Source: an uncultured Thermotogae bacterium (GTDB lineage Bacteria; Bipolaricaulota; Bipolaricaulia; UBA7950; UBA9294). From it: 20,038 nt of DNA. The position numbers were made by a program, and so were the translations under genes. The notes under the pieces are model-generated. The model saw only the letters and a program-made list of their open reading frames with translations, did not search any database and had not been told where the DNA came from. Location: positions 1 through 20,038 of the forward strand of contig CAZKPU010000022.1 of the NCBI GenBank assembly GCA_964554715.1, given 5' to 3'. This document shows, one piece after another, positions 1 to 17,896 of the stretch (position 1 is its first letter; every line of letters begins with the position of its first letter).

Positions 1-693
1 CGAACCATCTGCATTCAGAACCAGTGTCCCATGGGTCACATCCGAGAGCAGTGACACCGATTCGCCGCCGTCGGGGACGGAGTCGTTGGCGATCACCCCC
101 GGGATGTTGACTGTGAGCGTTGTGTCTTCGGGGGTGGAGTAGTTGTCATTCACGGCATCCACCGGATCGTCGTCCGTGATGATCCGGCAGCTTGGACCAT
201 CCAGTGGGAAGCCTGAAATTCCACCGGATCCAGCTTTCGCACCGACCGAGACATCGCCGACGTCGTACCATTGATCCAACGTCAGCGTCACCGTCCGGAC
301 TTCTCCATCACTGTAGCCGGTGTCGAACTTGACGCCGTACACGCCTGTGAACTTGTCATCGGCAAGGATGTACGCTTCCGATGCGCTGACGATCTGGTCG
401 CCATTCATCGGGAAACATGACTTCGGCAAGCCCAACACCCAATGACTCAGTCCCGGCTGAGTCCCGGATTCTACGCGATAGCGCCACGTAGACGTGCCAT
501 CACTGTTGTACGTCACCGAAAGGAACGTGAAAGTGTGAGTGTCGACGACAAGGCTCGTCCCGGACAATGCCGGAAACGCCACAAACGCAGTCAACACAAC
601 CACAAAAAAAACGTAAGAAACATAATGAGGTAGATTGCGGTGAAATGAGGTAGTAGGTGAAGGTGCAAGATTCCCGAAGACCTTCGTATTCAT
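1..693 (-). CDS. Secreted/cell-surface protein with a cadherin-like (VCBS-type) repeat. N-terminal part only; the gene continues past the window start.
   Basis: The minus-strand reading frame is open from 693 to position 1 with no stop. ATG is at 691-693 (rc), with SD GGGGAGG 5 nt upstream. The N-terminus MNTKVFGNLAPSPTTSFHRNLPHYVSYVFFVVVLTAFVAFPALSGTS looks like a signal peptide. Downstream, ...DDDPVDAVNDNYSTPEDTTLTVNIPGVIANDSVPDGG matches the bacterial cadherin-like/VCBS repeat pattern. It is absent from the ORF track only because it lacks a stop inside the window. Confidence 0.7.
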   Translation of the reverse strand, partial: MNTKVFGNLAPSPTTSFHRNLPHYVSYVFFVVVLTAFVAFPALSGTSLVVDTHTFTFLSVTYNSDGTSTWRYRVESGTQPGLSHWVLGLPKSCFPMNGDQIVSASEAYILADDKFTGVYGVKFDTGYSDGEVRTVTLTLDQWYDVGDVSVGAKAGSGGISGFPLDGPSCRIITDDDPVDAVNDNYSTPEDTTLTVNIPGVIANDSVPDGGESVSLLSDVTHGTLVLNADGS

Positions 694-699
694 TATGCC

Positions 700-800
700 T
701 CCCCGACGGAACTACCAAGGCCTTGGCAGCTCGGCCACCTCAGGGAGGCCCGTAGCTTTGCGCCCCACTCTCGCGAGTGGTTTGCCGTTGTCAAGCCTGA
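700..800 (-). ncRNA. c-di-GMP-I (GEMM) riboswitch, copy 2, in the 5' leader of the cadherin-like protein gene. Its expression platform sequesters the SD.
   Basis: Minus-strand reading: cGGCAAACC-ACUCG-CGA-GAGUGGG-GCGCAAAGC-UACGGGCCU... The Vc2 riboswitch reads GGGCAAACC-AUUCG-AAA-GAGUGGG-ACGCAAAGC-CUCCGGCCU. Hairpin CCACUC-GCGA-GAGUGG (GNRA loop) is at 765-780. A 3' conserved block GGUGGCCGaGcUGCCA is shared with copy 1. Anti-SD CCUCCC (rc of 743-748) lies inside the aptamer and is complementary to SD GGGAGG (rc of 698-704). Confidence 0.7.
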
Positions 801-862
801 CGCGAGCTTCAAGCAGTTTGCCTTTCTCAGCGAGATAGTGGCGCTCTAGGTGTTGTCCTCCC

Positions 863-1186
863 TCACTTGTCCTCCGCGTTTCTCCCCTGAATGATCAGCG
901 CGCGCTCAATCGCGTCCGAGCTTGTCAGGGATTCCTCCAGAAGGATGTCGCCGAGGAGCTTATCGGTGAACTTGCTTTCTTGAAGCGTCAAACCCTTGGC
1001 GAGGTCGGCATGTGTCACCGCGCCAAGATCCAGGAGGATCTCACCCAGTCTCTTGTTGCGTTCGAAGTGCTCTTCCAGAATGGACAAGATGACGGCGCTG
1101 CGACTCTTCCTTTCCCGACGGCCTTTTTGGTCGACCTGCTCCATCAGATAGGCATCGTCCTGCGCGTAGTAGATCGTCGTTTGCAT
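863..1186 (-). CDS. Small regulator (107 aa). A ribbon-helix-helix (CopG/Arc/MetJ-like) DNA-binding domain is fused to a T2SSE_N/MshEN-like tandem c-di-GMP-binding motif.
   Basis: Likely start MQTTIYY... at 1184-1186 (rc). The upstream M at 1216 would lie inside the riboswitch terminator. RHH pattern: beta-strand TTIYYAQ, helix DDAYLMEQVDQKG, helix SRSAVILSILEEHF (cf. CopG SKSAMISVALENY). This is followed by RLGEILLDLGAVTHADLAKGLTLQ and LLGDILLEESLTSSDAIERALIIQ. Both fit the 24-aa MshEN motif RLGxx(L/V/I)(L/V/I)xxG(L/V/I)(L/V/I)xxxxLxxxLxxQ. Confidence 0.65.
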   Translation of the reverse strand: MQTTIYYAQDDAYLMEQVDQKGRRERKSRSAVILSILEEHFERNKRLGEILLDLGAVTHADLAKGLTLQESKFTDKLLGDILLEESLTSSDAIERALIIQGRNAEDK

Positions 1187-1206
1187 GCTACACACCCCTA
1201 TTCCTG

Positions 1207-1250
1207 CAAAACACAAGCGACCGCGTTGCCTCTCCTGGCAACCCGGCCAC
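1207..1250 (-). terminator. Intrinsic terminator/antiterminator switch forming the expression platform of riboswitch copy 1.
   Basis: Minus-strand sequence: GUGGCCGGGUUGCC-AGGAGA-GGCAACGCGGUCGC. The stem is about 14 bp (one mismatch, two G.U pairs) and is immediately followed by UUGUGUUUUG (rc of 1207-1216). The 5' arm is the conserved GGUGGCCGGGUUGCC segment of the aptamer. Confidence 0.5.
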
Positions 1251-1305
1251 CATCATAGGTCCGTAGCTTTGCGTCCCTACCTTCCGATAGGTTTGCCTTT
1301 TTCAG
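1207..1305 (-). ncRNA. c-di-GMP-I (GEMM) riboswitch, copy 1, in the 5' leader of the RHH-MshEN regulator gene. Its expression platform is an intrinsic terminator.
   Basis: Minus-strand reading: aGGCAAACC-UAUCG-GAA-GGUAGGG-ACGCAAAGC-UACGGACCU...GGUGGCCGGGUUGCC. Hairpin CCUAUC-GGAA-GGUAGG (GNRA loop; G.U wobble compensating relative to copy 2) is at 1276-1291. GGCAAACC is the rc of 1290-1297. The aptamer 3' strand overlaps the 5' arm of a terminator hairpin. Confidence 0.75.
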
Positions 1306-1326
1306 GTCCCGCTTCTAAGTGCCACC

Positions 1327-1355
1327 ATCATATACGAAACACTTAGAATCGTCAA
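1327..1355 (-). promoter_or_regulatory. Sigma70-like promoter driving riboswitch copy 1 and the RHH-MshEN gene.
   Basis: On the minus strand: TTGACG (rc of 1350-1355), a 17-bp spacer, then TATGAT (rc of 1327-1332). The predicted TSS at ~1320 is ~22 nt upstream of the aptamer GGCAAACC. Confidence 0.55.
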
Positions 1356-1461
1356 GTCTTTCATCATCGCTTGAGATTCTCTATTGTTAGCGGCGACAAG
1401 AGAGACGATCCCAACGATCTTTGCGGCATTCAGGTCGCGCCTCTATACTGAGCACCTGAAG

Positions 1462-4026
1462 ATGAACGACACAAGCCCGATGATGGAGCAGTACTGGAGA
1501 CTGAAATCGCAGCATCCTGGCGCGATCCTGTTCTTTCACCTCGGCGACTTCTACGAGACGTTCTTCGACGACGCAAAGACGGTCGCTTCGGAGCTGGACG
1601 TTGTGCTGACGGCACGAAACGGCAATCCCATGGCTGGTGTCCCTGTGCGAAGGGGGGAAGCCTACATCAACCGCCTGTTGAAGAAGGGCTACAAGGTCGC
1701 GATCTGTCAACAGGTAGAGAACCCGAAGAACGCGAAGGGACTGGTGAAACGCAGGATTGTCCGGGTTGCCACACCGGGAACGGTTCTTGACGAGGACGTG
1801 CTGGACGCCGGGACCAACAACTACTTGGTCGGGATCTTCTCGCAGGAAAAGCACGCACTGGCGGTTGCCGACCTCTCAACCGGCGAGTTTCGATGCACGA
1901 CAGGTCTTGACGAATCGGCGCTGGATGGCGAGCTGCATCGGCTGTCGCCGTCCGAGATCCTCGTTCCGGCTTCCTGGAGCCCAGAGAAGCTGCGGAAGCT
2001 CGACGATCTTCACGCCTCGACGAGCACCATTGAAGTAGATAAGTACGAAGCCCGAGAGATGCCGGCGCCCACAGAGGAGTTCCCGCGTGCTGCGCTTCGG
2101 GCGGCGGCGGCCGTGTACAACTACATCGTTGAGACGCAGAAGGAAGCAGCGCAACATCTCCGTCCGCTTCAGCTCTACTCCGTTGCCGACCACATGGATC
2201 TCGACCCATTCACGGTGCGCAGCATGGAGCTGATCCATCCGCTCCGGGACGGCGGCAAGAGGGGAACGATTCTCGGGGTCGTTGATCAAACCTGTACGAG
2301 CATGGGGCGTCGGCTGCTCCGGCGCCGCCTTCTTTCCCCGATGGTCGATCTACGAAAGATCACCCGGCGTCTGGATGCAGTGGAAGCGCTCGTGGGCGCG
2401 GAAATCCCGCGGCAGCAGCTGCGGGAGAGCATGAAGTCGGTTCGGGATCTGGAACGGTTGACGGGAAGGTTGGGATCCCATCGGATCCGGCCGATGGATG
2501 TCCTCCTCATCCAACGAACCCTCGAGCGAGTCCCCGAGATTGCCGGCCGGATTCCGGGCATTGACGCATGTGAAAAGACAGATGGGAAGACCACTCATTC
2601 GCGTGATGGGGAAGGTCGAGCATCGGAGAACCTCGCGGACGTGCACCGACGGTTGACGAGTTCGGCTGTCGGCGATCTCAGCGCTCTGCTGAAGAACATG
2701 CTGGTCGATCAGCCGCCGCAACACATCGGCGAGGGAGGGGTCGTCCGTGATGGCCATGATTCGACGCTCGACGGGCTACGAGCGGCGATTGCCAACACCA
2801 AAGAGAAGATCGCTGCGGTTGAAGGACGTGAGCGCGAGAAGACGGGGATCGGAACACTCAAAGTCGGCTACAACAAGGTGTTTGGCTACTACCTCGAGGT
2901 GACGCGCACGCATCTGGAGAAGGTGCCTCCGCGCTACCATCGTCGGCAAACCCTGTCCAACGCGGAACGCTTCACCATCGACGAACTCCATGGATTGGAG
3001 CAGGACATCGAGGAAAAGCAGGCGGCGGCGGTCGCACGTGAGAAGGAAATCTACGATGCGGCGGTGAACGAACTCACGCGGTCGATCCCCGAGCTCCAAA
3101 GCATCAGCGATGCACTCGCCGAGCTTGATGTTGCCTTGTCGCTGGCGCAGATCGCAGCTCGAGACGGCTACTCGAGGCCGACCTTCAACGATCGGGGCGA
3201 GATTCGGATTCGAGATGGACGACATCCTGTAGTGGAGCAAGTCGAGGAGTTCGTCCCTAACGATCTTGAGATGGACCGGAAGACCTCGCTTGTTGTTCTG
3301 ACCGGTCCCAACATGGCTGGCAAGTCCGTCTTCTTGAGACAGGCTGCAGTCATCTGTCTGCTGGCACAAGTCGGGTCGTTCGTACCGGCGCGGGAGGCGT
3401 CCGTACCGATCGTCGATCAGGTGTTTGCCCGCGTCGGCGCAAGCGACGCTCTTGCCGAGGGAATCAGCACGTTCATGATGGAGATGCTCGAAGTATCAAC
3501 GATCCTCGAGCGCGCTACATCGCACAGCTTGATCATTCTCGACGAGATGGGACGTGGGACAAGCACGTTTGACGGGATGGCGATCGCATGGGCGATTGCT
3601 CATGAGCTAGCCTCGCGGACCCAGGCGAAGACGCTCTTTGCCACGCACTATCACGAACTCACACAGCTCGCCGATGAACTCCCTTCGGTGAAGAACCTGC
3701 ACGTGACCGTGAAGGAACTCGGGGACCATGTGGTTTTCCTGCATCACGTCGAAGAAGGGATTGCCGAAGGAAGCTACGGAGTTCACGTCGCCCGGCTTGC
3801 GGGACTCCCCGTCAGGGTCACCGAAGAGGCGGACCGCATTCTCGGTTCCTTAAGGGATGAGGAGCCGCTCACTCGGTTCCAGCAGAACCGGACGCCGAAG
3901 CAGCCTCTTCCTTTGTTCGGCGCCGAAGACCACCCGGTTGTCAAAGAGATCCGCAGCATCGACACGGATCGTCTCACTCCGCTGGAAGCGCTGAACCTCC
4001 TTGTGCGGTGGAAGGAAACCCTGTAG
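1462..4026 (+). CDS. mutS: DNA mismatch repair protein MutS (MutS1).
   Basis: N-terminus MNDTSPMMEQYWRLKSQHPGAILFFHLGDFYETFFDDA aligns with E. coli MutS HTPMMQQYLRLKAQHP..FYRMGDFYELFYDDA. Walker A GPNMAGKS and ILDEMGRGTSTFDG are present. The C-terminal LEALNLLVRWKE is MutS-like. The ORF opens at 1384 (TTG), but homology places the start at ATG 1462. Confidence 0.95.
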   Translation: MNDTSPMMEQYWRLKSQHPGAILFFHLGDFYETFFDDAKTVASELDVVLTARNGNPMAGVPVRRGEAYINRLLKKGYKVAICQQVENPKNAKGLVKRRIVRVATPGTVLDEDVLDAGTNNYLVGIFSQEKHALAVADLSTGEFRCTTGLDESALDGELHRLSPSEILVPASWSPEKLRKLDDLHASTSTIEVDKYEAREMPAPTEEFPRAALRAAAAVYNYIVETQKEAAQHLRPLQLYSVADHMDLDPFTVRSMELIHPLRDGGKRGTILGVVDQTCTSMGRRLLRRRLLSPMVDLRKITRRLDAVEALVGAEIPRQQLRESMKSVRDLERLTGRLGSHRIRPMDVLLIQRTLERVPEIAGRIPGIDACEKTDGKTTHSRDGEGRASENLADVHRRLTSSAVGDLSALLKNMLVDQPPQHIGEGGVVRDGHDSTLDGLRAAIANTKEKIAAVEGREREKTGIGTLKVGYNKVFGYYLEVTRTHLEKVPPRYHRRQTLSNAERFTIDELHGLEQDIEEKQAAAVAREKEIYDAAVNELTRSIPELQSISDALAELDVALSLAQIAARDGYSRPTFNDRGEIRIRDGRHPVVEQVEEFVPNDLEMDRKTSLVVLTGPNMAGKSVFLRQAAVICLLAQVGSFVPAREASVPIVDQVFARVGASDALAEGISTFMMEMLEVSTILERATSHSLIILDEMGRGTSTFDGMAIAWAIAHELASRTQAKTLFATHYHELTQLADELPSVKNLHVTVKELGDHVVFLHHVEEGIAEGSYGVHVARLAGLPVRVTEEADRILGSLRDEEPLTRFQQNRTPKQPLPLFGAEDHPVVKEIRSIDTDRLTPLEALNLLVRWKETL

Positions 4027-4031
4027 GCGTC

Positions 4032-5072
4032 ATGAGTCAGCAACAAGCTTCGCAACAACAGAACGAGCCCTCGATTCAGCCGGCTGACGGTGCCGGGCAC
4101 ACTCCCGTGCTTGTCGATGCGGTCGTCCGCTACATGAACCCGCATCCCGGGGGGATCTACGTCGATGGAACCATCGGATTGGGGGGGCACTCTCGGGCGC
4201 TTCTGCGCGCGGAGCGGGATATCCGGATTCTTGGGATCGATCGCGACCAGGCTGCACTGGACTACGCCGCCAGGTGTCTTGAGGAGTGGAGGGATCGAGT
4301 CTCGTTCCATCACGAACGGTTCTCCGAGTTGTTGAACGTCCTGCAGGCGGAAAGCGTTCCATCGGTCGACGGTGTCCTGCTGGATGTGGGGGTTTCCTCG
4401 ATGCAGCTCGATACCGCAGAGCGCGGGTTCAGCTTCCGGCGCAATGGCCCTCTTGACATGAGAATGAACGAGCAAGACGAGGCAACGGCGGCGGAACTCA
4501 TCTGTTCCGCGAGTGAAGCAGAGCTTGCGCGTATCTTCCGCGATTTCGGCGAGGAACGGTTTGCCGCGAGAATCGCCCGTCACGTAGTCCGGGTTCGGCA
4601 AGAGAGAGCGATCGAATCGACCGCGGCGCTGGCGGAAACGATCAGCGATGCCGTCCCGAAACGGTTCCACGTTCCCGGGTTCCACCCGGCGACACGCTGT
4701 TTTCAAGCGCTTCGGATCGCCGTAAACGACGAGCTGTCGCAGCTGTCGGCGGGGCTCGAAGCCGCCTTCAACGCGCTCCATCCGGGCGGCGTCCTCGTGG
4801 TGATCTCGTTTCACTCGCTGGAGGATCGGCTTGTGAAGCAGTTCTTGCGTCACAAGGAGGCTTCATGCATCTGTCCGCCGGAGCTTCCTGTGTGCATGTG
4901 CAGCAAGCAGCAAGAGATGAAGCAGCTAACCCGCCGTCCGGTTGTGGCGGATGCTGCCGAGAAGGAGCGCAATCCAAGAGCTCGCAGCGCGAAGCTCCGA
5001 GCTGGCATCAAGCTGGCGGTTACCAACGATCCAAACGGAACCGACATGTGTCATCCTCCGGTGTGTCCGTAG
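4032..5072 (+). CDS. rsmH: 16S rRNA (cytosine1402-N4)-methyltransferase RsmH (MraW).
   Basis: HTPVLVDAVVRYMNPHPGGIYVDGTIGLGGHSRALL matches the RsmH N-terminal SAM-binding region (HxxVLLxE...GxYxDxTxGxGGHS). Typical RsmH length. The start could be ATG 4032 or GTG 4008, 6 nt after or overlapping the mutS stop (4024-4026). Confidence 0.9.
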   Translation: MSQQQASQQQNEPSIQPADGAGHTPVLVDAVVRYMNPHPGGIYVDGTIGLGGHSRALLRAERDIRILGIDRDQAALDYAARCLEEWRDRVSFHHERFSELLNVLQAESVPSVDGVLLDVGVSSMQLDTAERGFSFRRNGPLDMRMNEQDEATAAELICSASEAELARIFRDFGEERFAARIARHVVRVRQERAIESTAALAETISDAVPKRFHVPGFHPATRCFQALRIAVNDELSQLSAGLEAAFNALHPGGVLVVISFHSLEDRLVKQFLRHKEASCICPPELPVCMCSKQQEMKQLTRRPVVADAAEKERNPRARSAKLRAGIKLAVTNDPNGTDMCHPPVCP

Positions 5073-5091
5073 CTGCTAGGGTGGGGAAGCC

Positions 5092-5457
5092 ATGATGCAC
5101 TCTCGGAGAACAAACGGCCTTGACCGGAACGCTCGTCGCAACGTGCGCAGCCGGCGGCGCAGCACGCTGGACGTACGACGGTCGATCCCCGTTGTCCTTG
5201 TCGTGGCGGGGCTGGTGGTCGCACTGGGCTTGGCGTTCATCTACGTTCGGCAGAGTTCGGCGCTTCTTGCCCTGACCGCCGAGCGAGAAGAACTGCGTGA
5301 CACCTTGGATGCAACCCTGGAGCTAAGCAACGTGTTCGCCGATGAGCTGGCCCATCGTCATGCGTTACCGATCATCTCGGAGATTGCGCGGGATCGGCTG
5401 GGAATGGTGGAACCGGAAACCGTCCTGTATATCGTCCTCCAAGATGACCAACCCTAG
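5092..5457 (+). CDS. ftsL: Cell division protein FtsL (septum-formation initiator family).
   Basis: 121 aa. It has a basic N-terminus, a single TM (IPVVLVVAGLVVALGLAFIYV), a coiled-coil segment and C-terminal IARDRLGMVEPETVLYIV typical of FtsL/FtsB/DivIC. It sits between rsmH and a class B PBP. Confidence 0.7.
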   Translation: MMHSRRTNGLDRNARRNVRSRRRSTLDVRRSIPVVLVVAGLVVALGLAFIYVRQSSALLALTAEREELRDTLDATLELSNVFADELAHRHALPIISEIARDRLGMVEPETVLYIVLQDDQP

Positions 5458-16705: not shown

Positions 16706-17896
16706 GTGGGGATGAGGTTGCACCGCCGGATTGCGAAGACGGTCGCGCTGACGATGCTCGTGCTTGTTCTGTTTGCGGTGACTCTGCCGATCGTGGCCGT
16801 TGGGGAGACTGCGGCCCTTCCATATCAAACCCGGGGCTACAGTCAGGCGTTTCAGGGATCCCCGGGCGCATGGGGCGATGATCGCCTCGGAACAGCCGGG
16901 TGTCCGGACAGTCTCGCAACCACCGGGTGCCTCGTGACCGCGATTGCCTGTGTGCTCGAGTACTACGGAATGGAGGTCGCACTTCCGGCAAGCGGAGGAC
17001 GGATCACGGGGTCGGATCCGGGGGCGCTGAATGCATGGCTCAAGGAGAACGGCGGCTTCGGTCATTGTGCGAGTGACGCCTTCGGGAACTGCTGTCTCGA
17101 ATGGTCCCATCTTCCACCGGAACTTCTGCTTCACACCTACTACAACACGAGCGAGATGGGAATGGACGTTCAGGCAACGGCAAGGATCACTCGCGCTCTT
17201 GAGCAAGGCCAGCCGGTTCTCGCCGGGGTTCACTGGGGGGTCCCGTGCGGTGCCGACCCCGACCGCAGCGAAGACTGCCACTGGATCGTGATTACCGCGC
17301 AGGCTCACGGCACGACCGTCATCCTTGACACGTACAACCCCGACTTCTCGTCTCCGTATGCCGTGCGAACCACGTTGGATCGAGGCGTGCACGGCAGCTA
17401 CATTATCGATCGGTATGTCGTGGTGGACGCGCCGGAGCTGGTTCCGGCATCCACAGCGGTTGTTGTCTCGCTTGCTCCGGGAAGTTGGACCTCACCCGGA
17501 AGCCCGGCGCAGTTGGTTGTTCAGACATCGGATGTGGGCATCGACTCCTCGTTGTTCGTCACCGCGATCGATCCTCAGGGCGTCTCGTGGTCGCTTGCTC
17601 CGGACAGCGCAGCGGCGGACGGACGTTGGATTCGCACCGCGACTCCTGCCGGATGGGACGTGGAGCCCCACGACGTGCGGGTGTGGAGCATTCCGTTGCC
17701 GCTGGGGATCGATCCCGCGGAATGGACATGGAATGCATGGTTGAGCGATCCGCTACTGCCGGGGATCCCGCTGGCTCAAGGAACGCAGGGTCGAGCGGCC
17801 GCCGTGGACTCGCCCATCTCCGCGTTGGGAGTCCTTGCAGCGCTTGCGCTTCTTGCAGCGACGGTCACGTTCATGGTCTGGGTGCTGAACGAGTAG
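16706..17896 (+). CDS. Membrane-anchored protein with a peptidase C39-like (papain-fold, PF13529-type) domain. It has an N-terminal signal/TM, a beta-rich middle region and a C-terminal TM tail.
   Basis: LPYQTRGYSQ…TGCLVTAIACVLEYYG places a Cys in the C39_2-like position (cf. pyxSQ…CGPTSLAMVLsYYG). The His lies in CHWIVITAQAHGTTVILDTYNPD. N-terminal hydrophobic region LTMLVLVLFAVTLPIVAV. C-terminal LGVLAALALLAATVTFMVWVLNE. Starts 3 nt after the upstream gene. Confidence 0.6.
   Translation: MGMRLHRRIAKTVALTMLVLVLFAVTLPIVAVGETAALPYQTRGYSQAFQGSPGAWGDDRLGTAGCPDSLATTGCLVTAIACVLEYYGMEVALPASGGRITGSDPGALNAWLKENGGFGHCASDAFGNCCLEWSHLPPELLLHTYYNTSEMGMDVQATARITRALEQGQPVLAGVHWGVPCGADPDRSEDCHWIVITAQAHGTTVILDTYNPDFSSPYAVRTTLDRGVHGSYIIDRYVVVDAPELVPASTAVVVSLAPGSWTSPGSPAQLVVQTSDVGIDSSLFVTAIDPQGVSWSLAPDSAAADGRWIRTATPAGWDVEPHDVRVWSIPLPLGIDPAEWTWNAWLSDPLLPGIPLAQGTQGRAAAVDSPISALGVLAALALLAATVTFMVWVLNE

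Follow-up and report, generated by a model that had tools for sequence, protein, structure and literature searches.

Why would a bacterium place the gene for a small putative receptor of cyclic diguanylate (c-di-GMP) between two RNA elements that themselves appear to sense c-di-GMP? This question is raised by one end of a 20,038-nucleotide (nt) contig from an uncultured Thermotogae bacterium assigned to Bipolaricaulota in the GTDB lineage (assembly GCA_964554715.1, contig CAZKPU010000022.1, positions 1 to 20,038; hereinafter, the window). There, a c-di-GMP-I-type aptamer (RS1), the gene for a 107-amino-acid (aa) protein that joins a probable ribbon-helix-helix (RHH) half to an MshEN-like half, a second aptamer of the same type (RS2) and the gene for a cadherin-like surface protein follow one another on the minus strand. 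Having compared this locus with its relatives, we think it rather probable that the arrangement is a bicistronic operon gated by c-di-GMP and conserved in Bipolaricaulota, in which a predicted transcription switch precedes the regulator gene and a second switch, most simply a translational one, precedes the surface-protein gene. The features of the locus, with the evidence for each, are as follows.

1355..1327, minus strand: promoter of the sigma-70 type, with −35 TTGACG (1355..1350), a 17-nt spacer and −10 TATGAT (1332..1327)
1306..1233, minus strand: RS1, aptamer of the c-di-GMP-I type located in the regulator's 5' leader (Rfam RF03167 and our own model R1)
1208..1251, minus strand: RS1 expression platform, hairpin 1251..1216 plus tail UGUGUUUU at 1215..1208 (RNAfold of the leader)
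1186..863, minus strand: regulator gene, 107-aa protein with RHH and MshEN_N-like parts (open reading frame (ORF) translation, profiles, AlphaFold2 (AF2) model, Foldseek)
831..813, minus strand: apparent relic of an older downstream aptamer, GCUGAGAAAGGCAAACUGC, its first 19 nt only (exact match to the aptamer of locus L001)
795..721, minus strand: RS2, second c-di-GMP-I-type aptamer, between the regulator and adhesin genes (Rfam RF03167 and our own model R1)
749..697, minus strand: RS2 expression platform, P3 5' strand and loop complementary to the Shine-Dalgarno (SD) region
693..<1, minus strand: surface-protein gene, 5' part (231 codons), running off the window edge (ORF translation, Pfam)
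1310..1351, no strand: inverted repeat CGCTTCTAAGTG / CACTTAGAATCG, candidate operator spanning the −10 element (repeat search)
1462-4026, plus strand: mutS (ORF; context only)

Conservation of the arrangement

The comparison covers 85 loci from Bipolaricaulota metagenome-assembled genomes and metagenomes, which were gathered through the protein alone, blind to RNA, and then searched with R1, a covariance model derived from 11 aptamers confirmed by Rfam. Five of the loci came from a contig scan with the single protein and 80 are the best of 143 matches in a metagenome profile scan, so that close homologs are over-represented. Among homologs with at least 65% identity, an aptamer was found within 120 nt upstream of 65 of 66 distinct copies, and within 130 nt downstream of the stop codon in 60 of 64, with three more located farther downstream. 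For homologs below 65% identity, the corresponding counts are 3 of 12 upstream and 2 of 11 downstream. All 159 aptamer matches lie on the strand of the gene, and Rfam independently confirmed the linkage on 21 loci. The initial annotation of this DNA had described a riboswitch, an RHH-MshEN gene, a riboswitch and a gene for a cadherin-like secreted protein in succession, and had named the co-occurrence of regulator, GEMM elements and adhesin genes in related genomes as a check; all these elements were found on the minus strand where they had been placed, and the linkage is borne out by the counts for the closer homologs. The distant homologs, mostly without riboswitches, speak against a circuit shared by all carriers of the protein; one of them, in L081, lies without aptamers between subtilase and RNase H genes. 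The sandwich is stably kept in the main clade but not throughout the protein family.

The protein itself is well represented in this phylum. We detected 377 homologs that are 70-80% identical, all named ones from Bipolaricaulota, and about 40 clusters (at 50% identity) match the family profile over its full length. Within the same loci the regulator is better conserved than MutS (for example, 74% vs 57% in L002).

Some loci depart from the simple sandwich. Six (L034, L035, L037, L040, L042 and L048) have two complete riboswitches in tandem upstream of the regulator, as at L037:2678-2781 and 2826-2947, and in the folded tandem leaders, those of L037 and L042, each aptamer has a separate terminator. 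A further aptamer follows the RHH-RS2 region at L019:1844-1921, L021:1966-2043, L043:895-972, L046:996-1073, L055:596-673 and L074:894-969; in these loci a stretch of about 1 kb contains three or four c-di-GMP aptamers, and in the three of them scanned with Rfam the family RF01051 itself is the best match of the further aptamer. One contig, L007, carries the whole RS1-regulator-RS2 unit in duplicate (2431-2994 and 4897-5456), the copies flanking a frameshifted pair of transposase-like ORFs (3160-4288, minus strand) that are of the IS256 type as judged by eye; the first copy has a weak RS2 (45 bits) and no gene behind it.

A promoter and a predicted transcription switch in front of the regulator gene

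The promoter at 1355..1327 agrees with the consensus at 10 of 12 positions and is the sole promoter-like site that a consensus scan found within 600-1500. An equivalent TTGACA-17-TATAAT site with at most two mismatches lies at the same distance upstream of 58 of 65 distinct upstream aptamers in the related loci. Behind the aptamer, RNAfold predicts a terminator hairpin (1251..1216) whose 5' arm (GGUGGCCGGGUUGCC) is the aptamer 3' strand and which is followed by the U-rich tail UGUGUUUU; an internal mismatch hides it from a simple terminator scan. The same configuration, a hairpin and U-rich tract overlapping the aptamer 3' strand (GCCGGGUUGCCAGG), recurs at 72 of 75 distinct upstream aptamers, the stem being kept by compensatory changes, and the same search after downstream aptamers returned only 9 loose matches in 64, mostly spurious. 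Because the aptamer and the terminator share a strand and are mutually exclusive, binding of the ligand should prevent termination, which would make RS1 a transcriptional ON switch, a prediction from structure that is well replicated and that we regard as well supported. RS1 of the window is 95% identical to RS1 of L001 and 92% identical to that of L006.

Two other observations concern the same leader. A perfect 12-nt direct repeat, TATGATGGTGGC on the minus strand, is present at 1321-1332, in the −10 region, and at 1246-1257, in the P3 loop and 3' strand of RS1; by our estimate, chance would produce about 0.02 such repeats in this 781-nt stretch. In most loci, a CA(C/A)TTAG motif is conserved approximately 20-27 nt before RS1 (in the window at 1313-1319, minus strand), just downstream of the −10 element and near the expected transcription start, and is retained despite the divergence of the leaders.

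The putative regulator protein

The C-terminal half of the 107-aa protein is the better characterized of the two by comparison. The protein scores 51.8 bits with the NCBIfam family NF053729 ('c-di-GMP_motif, MshE-related') against a cut-off of 38, and a profile search of PDB sequences aligned its C-terminal half (46-100) with the third MshEN domain of Thermus PilF (E-value (E) 8e-12). The AF2 model, with a mean predicted local distance difference test score (pLDDT) of 81, consists of two helices and then a four-helix bundle (helices 47-54, 59-71, 78-84 and 90-100). Foldseek superposes this bundle on c-di-GMP-bound PilF-GSPIIB and MshE with a root-mean-square deviation of 1.1-1.5 Å over 53-59 residues and 33-41% identity; the probability of these matches is 1.00, and their E of 0.015-0.17 is explained by the shortness of the match. 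The MshEN motif is made up of two tandem 24-residue stretches of the form RLGxx(L/V/I)(L/V/I)xxG(L/V/I)(L/V/I)xxxxLxxxLxxQ (PMC5013675). Motif I of the regulator (46-RLGEILLDLGAVTHADLAKGLTLQ-69) agrees with the relaxed form of the published motif, a property shared by 115 of 121 family members, and motif II (77-LLGDILLEESLTSSDAIERALIIQ-100) keeps the Leu, Gly and Gln contacts. Altogether, 11 of the 12 key contact positions are kept (R46, L47, G48, L62, L66, Q69, L78, G79, I93, L97 and Q100), most of them invariant in the family. We consider the assignment of this half to MshEN a good one by model and profile, and ligand binding is predicted from it.

The N-terminal half is probably an RHH domain. 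In the AF2 monomer it comprises helices 9-25 and 29-43, and residues 1-8 (QTTIYY) have no assigned structure, as would be expected of a strand that forms only in the dimer. Foldseek relates this half to CopG (target-normalised template modelling score 0.78, probability 0.82) and to CdbA and Arc (probability 0.5-0.7), and one homolog carries the source name 'CopG/Arc/MetJ family transcriptional regulator'.

Several details of the protein weigh against these assignments. The Foldseek matches to CopG, CdbA and Arc all have E > 1, and Pfam RHH_1 is matched with E 0.02 and 15.2 bits, below its cut-off of 20.5. Position 1 of motif II is Leu rather than Arg, Lys, Pro or Asn, within a KLLG that is invariant in the family; position 10, published as Gly, Ala or Ser, is Ser in the window and Glu in most family members; and the linker between the motifs has 7 residues instead of 5, a length also seen in the third PilF domain.

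The same departures lend some weight to an alternative that we judge unlikely, namely that the protein is an ordinary RHH autorepressor with an MshEN-like tail that is past c-di-GMP binding and has become an oligomerisation or scaffold domain, leaving the RNA alone to sense c-di-GMP at this locus. RHH proteins commonly autoregulate, and in the window an inverted repeat, with 12-nt arms that are 18 nt apart and 92% complementary, lies over the −10 element (1310-1351). Along with the deviations of motif II at positions 1 and 10, there is the precedent of MshEN homologs, such as XpsE, that have lost binding (PMC5013675). However, the protein passes the NCBIfam cut-off, retains all but one of the key contacts and superposes closely on the ligand-bound structures of PilF and MshE. 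The inverted repeat, moreover, is poorly conserved across loci; the closest relatives, L001 and L006, retain part of it and the other loci do not, and we have rejected it as a conserved operator. Comparison of the related loci revealed no conserved operator at the promoter of the operon itself, which also counts against the circuit that we favour, with the protein as a c-di-GMP-responsive regulator.

In L068, an MshEN-like motif (PLGEILVELGTLDRAGLQQG) is also present in the product of the gene behind RS2 (3602-3991), a second small protein that is approximately 35% identical to the C-terminal half of the regulator.

Probable co-transcription of RS2 and a proposed translation switch

We found no internal promoter for RS2 in the window or in most of the related loci, the best match upstream of true downstream aptamers mostly having 4-7 mismatches in 12 positions. 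The gap between the regulator stop codon and RS2 has a median of 45 nt and is no longer than 24 nt in 23 of 59 distinct gaps, and in none of these 59 gaps is there a hairpin followed by a U-tract. A terminator behind RS2 was considered and rejected: the window has none of the U-tract type, and the loose family matches are the mostly spurious ones mentioned above. In most loci, GGAGG and then a start codon are found 13-35 nt after the downstream aptamer. Because RS2 has neither a promoter nor a terminator of its own and is directly followed by an SD sequence and a start codon, it is most simply read as an intercistronic translational riboswitch on the transcript initiated at the RS1 promoter.

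In the window, a possible mechanism can be seen. The segment GCCUCCCUGA (749..740), which belongs to the P3 5' strand and loop, is complementary to the SD-containing segment UCGGGGAGGC (706..697); the inverted repeat they form, I5, is 10 nt long and 90% complementary, and the SD sequence lies 4 nt upstream of the AUG at 693. In the minimum-free-energy fold, 5 of 5 SD bases are paired with the P3 5' strand, and with the aptamer enforced, 2 of 5 are paired. Since the free fold thus occupies five SD bases and the enforced aptamer frees three of them, we hold with moderate confidence that RS2 of the window is an ON switch whose SD sequence would be sequestered without ligand; across the family, the direction predicted by folding is mixed.

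This reading of RS2 has to be set against several results. The SD sequence pairs with the P3 5' strand in only 12 of 43 free folds from the family and is still paired in 18 of 43 folds with the aptamer enforced, and for the window the nearest-neighbour model favours the alternative over the aptamer-enforced fold by about 20 kcal/mol. Furthermore, in a subgroup of loci (L028, L039, L045, L047 and L065) a plausible promoter lies 42 nt upstream of RS2. Other loci show a weak local SD hairpin abutting P1, and a uniform anti-SD mechanism, being clear in only those 12 loci, was rejected.

Part of this evidence bears on the opposite sign of control, that is, on RS2 being an OFF switch in which the ligand stabilises P1 and occludes the adjacent ribosome-binding site, so that the operon would be incoherent and would give a pulse or a band-pass response. 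In many loci no more than 5-10 nt separate the P1 3' strand from the SD sequence, the latter stays paired in the enforced folds just counted, and both ON and OFF c-di-GMP-I riboswitches exist (PMC11218506). In the window and in 11 other loci, however, the SD sequence of the free fold pairs with the P3 5' strand, and folding of the aptamer sequesters this strand. High c-di-GMP also generally promotes adhesin expression, the riboswitch Bc2 at the adhesin gene cap being an ON example. On balance, we find an OFF switch quite unlikely, and an ON switch remains our reading of RS2 in the window.

Genes behind RS2 and apparent exchange of cassettes

The surface protein of the window, which would be secreted or anchored, has a hydrophobic segment (approximately aa 23-45) together with an uncharacterised N-terminal domain and, from aa 173, a cadherin-like domain (Pfam Cadherin_4, E 1.3e-11; Big_9, E 1.3e-4). 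Three groups of genes occupy the equivalent position behind RS2 in the related loci. The first encodes 30 large proteins with signal peptides and DUF11, DUF7507, Big, cadherin-like, HYR, PKD or VWA domains. The second encodes 15 small secreted proteins of about 125 aa in the mature form, with the motif FNVLLSDEDTGYL...VRIYSIDP (for instance, L002:4549-4929, L015:3612-3974 and L022:3628-4005), of which the representative from L002 has no Pfam match. The third consists of 6 secreted proteins of about 180-210 aa, also without a Pfam match, encoded behind a further aptamer. The proposal, made in the initial annotation, that the riboswitch controls a cadherin-like adhesin gene can be generalised in one respect and has to be narrowed in another: surface-protein cargo is the rule, but the cadherin-like gene is specific to the window and is not a conserved partner of the regulator.

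Cargo differs even among three close relatives with regulators that are 96-97% identical, which have the cadherin-like gene in the window, a different surface-protein gene in L001 and a Dak2-DegV gene in L006. In L006, the closest relative (regulator 97%), the downstream aptamer (3359-3433, 46 bits) has an intact 5' half and a diverged 3' half, and the Dak2-DegV housekeeping gene (3456-5360) follows this half-degenerate element and is fused to it; this looks like a riboswitch decaying after the loss of its cargo. In the window, the apparent relic matches exactly the first 19 nt of the downstream aptamer of L001 (L001:4371-4389), where 0 chance matches are expected in the window, and it forms a direct repeat, D1, of the 5' core of RS2, a complete and different aptamer that begins 17 nt later. 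RS2 of the window is closest not to that of L001 but to RS2 of the distant loci L053 and L040 (79-81%). A homolog of the window surface protein, P0272 in L087 (811-1755; 43% identity, 79% coverage), shares the N-terminal domain and the cadherin-like repeats and is preceded by a c-di-GMP-I-type aptamer (697-788) that ends 22 nt upstream of its start, with no RHH-MshEN gene nearby. The relic suggests that an older unit of riboswitch and gene in the window was replaced by recombination inside the aptamer core. Because cargo differs between relatives, a relic is left, RS2 resembles those of distant loci and the homolog in L087 has its own aptamer, units of riboswitch and adhesin gene appear to be exchanged as cassettes at this site.

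Cassette exchange opens the possibility that the locus is not one circuit but two independent riboswitch-gene units side by side, with RS2 and the adhesin gene as a cassette that has its own start and sits at an insertion hotspot, functionally untied from the regulator. The variation of the cargo among close relatives, the relic, the homolog in L087 that has an aptamer and no RHH gene, and the promoter-like site upstream of RS2 in one subgroup are all in keeping with such a view. Yet most loci have no promoter-like site before RS2, the gap between the stop codon and RS2 is often 0-24 nt and never contains a terminator, the relic lies just 17 nt from RS2 in the window, and the downstream aptamer is kept in 60 of 64 copies whatever the cargo. 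Two untied units are accordingly an improbable account, and we continue to treat RS2 and its gene as the second part of a single operon.

Fold and ligand of the aptamers

Both aptamers score above the gathering score of 59 for Rfam family RF03167 in a scan of the window, RS1 with 68.1 bits (E 1.7e-14) and RS2 with 70.6 bits (E 3.3e-15); each site also matched a second family of clan CL00126 at a lower score, which was set aside. With model R1, the scores are 84.1 bits for RS1 and 86.3 bits for RS2. Across 135 distinct related aptamers, 95.5% of the cells of the alignment are paired and compensatory changes occur in 16 of 21 pairs, although the alignment was fitted to a covariance model and somewhat favours the fold; in a control with slid partners, pairing drops to 47% or less. 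RS1 and RS2 have the GEMM-I fold, with P1 and two hairpins, covariation, and a GNRA loop on the first hairpin (GGAA in RS1, GCGA in RS2).

The residues of the Vc2 aptamer that contact c-di-GMP are G20, A47 and C92 (PMC4744006). This canonical triad, in Vc2 numbering, is present in both window aptamers and, among the distinct related aptamers, G20 is found in 132 of 135, A47 in 134 of 135 and C92 in 134 of 134. The best Rfam family, RF03167, is named 'c-di-GMP-I-GGC', where GGC presumably denotes nucleotides 20, 47 and 92, a reading that follows the Rfam consensus and, reportedly, Weinberg et al. 2017. Membership in this class was rejected: the G of its consensus (CGCGAAgC) is replaced by A (CGCAAAGC) in both window aptamers, and precisely this defining G position is mismatched in the cmscan alignment. 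Judged by these residues, the pockets of RS1 and RS2 are of the canonical c-di-GMP type, the GGC label would mirror overall sequence similarity only, and from the canonical pocket we infer that the ligand is c-di-GMP. That the aptamers instead belong to an orphan GGC class sensing another ligand is highly improbable, for although RF03167 is the top Rfam family of RS1, RS2 and most relatives, the defining position is A in 134 of 135 relatives as well as in the window, G20 and C92 are canonical too, and the aptamers of several relatives score best with RF01051 itself. The description of the two elements as c-di-GMP-I riboswitches, with which this work began, can be retained with the qualification that the best-scoring Rfam model is the GGC variant.

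A replaces G at the position of G20 in 3 of the 135 distinct aptamers (alignment A3). A change from G20 to A marks the cGAMP-sensing GEMM-Ib riboswitches of Geobacter.

Setting of the locus

The locus adjoins mutS, which is divergently oriented, and the remaining large ORFs of the window are housekeeping genes, for RsmH, a PBP transpeptidase, MnmG, TIM, a CDP-alcohol phosphatidyltransferase, a queuosine-salvage protein, SurE and a HAD hydrolase, in agreement with the setting initially described. In 45 related loci, MutS is likewise encoded upstream of the regulator gene on the opposite strand (tblastn). Among the well-annotated housekeeping genes of the window there is also a 396-aa ORF (16706-17896, plus strand) that has no Pfam match at E <= 1e-5.

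A model of the circuit

Taken together, these results suggest a simple model. Under this model, a near-consensus and probably constitutive promoter would transcribe RS1. In the absence of c-di-GMP, the 3' strand of RS1 would pair downstream to form the terminator, and transcription would stop before the first gene; with c-di-GMP bound, the aptamer would retain this strand and RNA polymerase would read through into the RHH-MshEN gene, RS2 and the surface-protein gene, in this order. On the resulting transcript, the P3 5' strand of RS2 would pair with the adhesin SD sequence unless held by the ligand-bound aptamer, so that RS2, too, would probably be ON. Synthesis of the regulator would depend on one c-di-GMP-dependent decision and would take place only at high c-di-GMP. 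Synthesis of the adhesin would require two successive binding events, one co-transcriptional and the other reversible over the lifetime of the mRNA, from which a sharper threshold could be expected. The MshEN four-helix bundle of the protein is predicted to be its c-di-GMP-binding part and an RHH dimer its means of binding DNA. The protein could pass the signal on to further promoters; if it does bind c-di-GMP, its output would be set twice, through its abundance and through its activity. Both binding activities of the protein, any regulatory link between it and the adhesin, and the thresholding or feed-forward logic suggested in the initial annotation, we infer.

A bolder extension, which we consider doubtful, is that RHH-MshEN proteins represent a new class of c-di-GMP-responsive transcription factors and act as a central regulator of the cell surface and biofilm in Bipolaricaulota, in a cascade from riboswitch to transcription factor, with the intercistronic riboswitch as a landing pad for cassettes that recombine in the aptamer core. 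Should this be the case, any incoming surface-protein gene would at once come under the same two-gate control by c-di-GMP.

To our knowledge, Bipolaricaulota have no cultured members, and signalling in this phylum is known only from sequence, so that the locus gives testable entry points. It offers a predicted c-di-GMP receptor and transcription factor with a new pairing of RHH and MshEN, better conserved than MutS across the phylum, a case in which RNA would read one messenger twice, by distinct mechanisms, and a protein dependent for its synthesis on the first reading would probably read it once more, and signs that units of riboswitch and adhesin gene move as cassettes. Given their small size, the RNAs and the 107-aa protein could be synthesised and studied in vitro without the organism. 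If the proposed logic holds, the locus would be a compact natural design for steep and reversible thresholding of surface-protein expression.

Comparison with known systems

Control of an adhesin gene by a c-di-GMP riboswitch has a precedent in Bacillus thuringiensis, where the c-di-GMP-I ON riboswitch Bc2 precedes cap, a gene for collagen adhesion (Tang et al. 2016, cited in PMC11218506, where Bc2 serves as an ON control). The Bc2-cap pair and the present locus have in common the class I aptamer and an adhesin that is, or is predicted to be, turned on when c-di-GMP rises, and the read-through control of Bc2 is what we predict for RS1. Unlike Bc2, which is one riboswitch for one gene, the present locus has a regulator gene between two riboswitches, and the one proximal to the adhesin gene would be translational. 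Riboswitches for c-di-GMP reportedly also occur as a triple tandem, Bc3-5 (Zhou et al. 2016). Tandem c-di-GMP riboswitches are enriched and are expected to sharpen responses (PMC12452182). As in such tandems, independent aptamers for one ligand would act in series on one transcript, with a steeper response to be expected; in contrast to them, a coding sequence separates the two sensors, termination would be followed by control of translation, and the first gene would be subject to one gate and the second to two.

The protein also has relatives of known function. Receptors with MshEN domains include V. cholerae MshE, the GSPII domains of Thermus PilF, and NfrB (PMC5013675; PDB 5HTL, 8PDK). The regulator has in common with them two tandem 24-residue MshEN-like motifs and the predicted four-helix bundle and, with the third PilF domain, the 7-residue linker. 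It differs in that the known proteins have ATPases, glycosyltransferases or signalling domains attached, whereas here the attached part is a probable RHH domain and motif II is without Arg. No MshEN-RHH fusion was found in PMC5013675, in its supplement (no RHH, CopG or HTH entry) or in the literature searched. The RHH protein CdbA of Myxococcus xanthus is a c-di-GMP receptor and a nucleoid-associated protein (PMC7156744; PDB 6SBW). The regulator resembles CdbA, which was among the Foldseek matches of its N-terminal half, in being a small, predicted RHH protein that would bind c-di-GMP, but CdbA has no MshEN domain, and there the nucleotide is bound by the RHH protein itself. We know of no riboswitch control of cdbA.

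Sensing of one small molecule by both RNA and protein is familiar from c-di-AMP, with the ydaO/kimA riboswitch and the KtrA and KimA proteins, and from Mn2+, with MntR and the yybP-ykoY riboswitch at mntP. For c-di-GMP, the Vc2 riboswitch and a c-di-GMP-dependent transcription factor act at tfoY in V. cholerae (Pursley et al. 2018, as summarised in PMC11218506). In all three cases, as proposed here, RNA and protein sensors of one small molecule converge on one function. In all three, however, the protein sensor is encoded elsewhere, whereas here the gene of the predicted sensor would itself be riboswitch-controlled and lies between the two RNA sensors.

In the literature searched, the coverage of which is incomplete, we found no relevant description of a c-di-GMP riboswitch together with CopG, or of a riboswitch together with Acetothermia, and none of an RHH-MshEN gene placed between two aptamers or of the conservation of such a layout. 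The one paper there that brings together Bipolaricaulota and c-di-GMP is a general essay on the origins of biofilms. Adhesin-activating c-di-GMP riboswitches, tandem riboswitches, MshEN receptors, the RHH c-di-GMP receptor CdbA and dual sensing at tfoY are already known. What appears to be new is the RHH-MshEN fusion, the position of its gene between two aptamers, and the phylum-wide conservation of this arrangement with exchangeable cargo.

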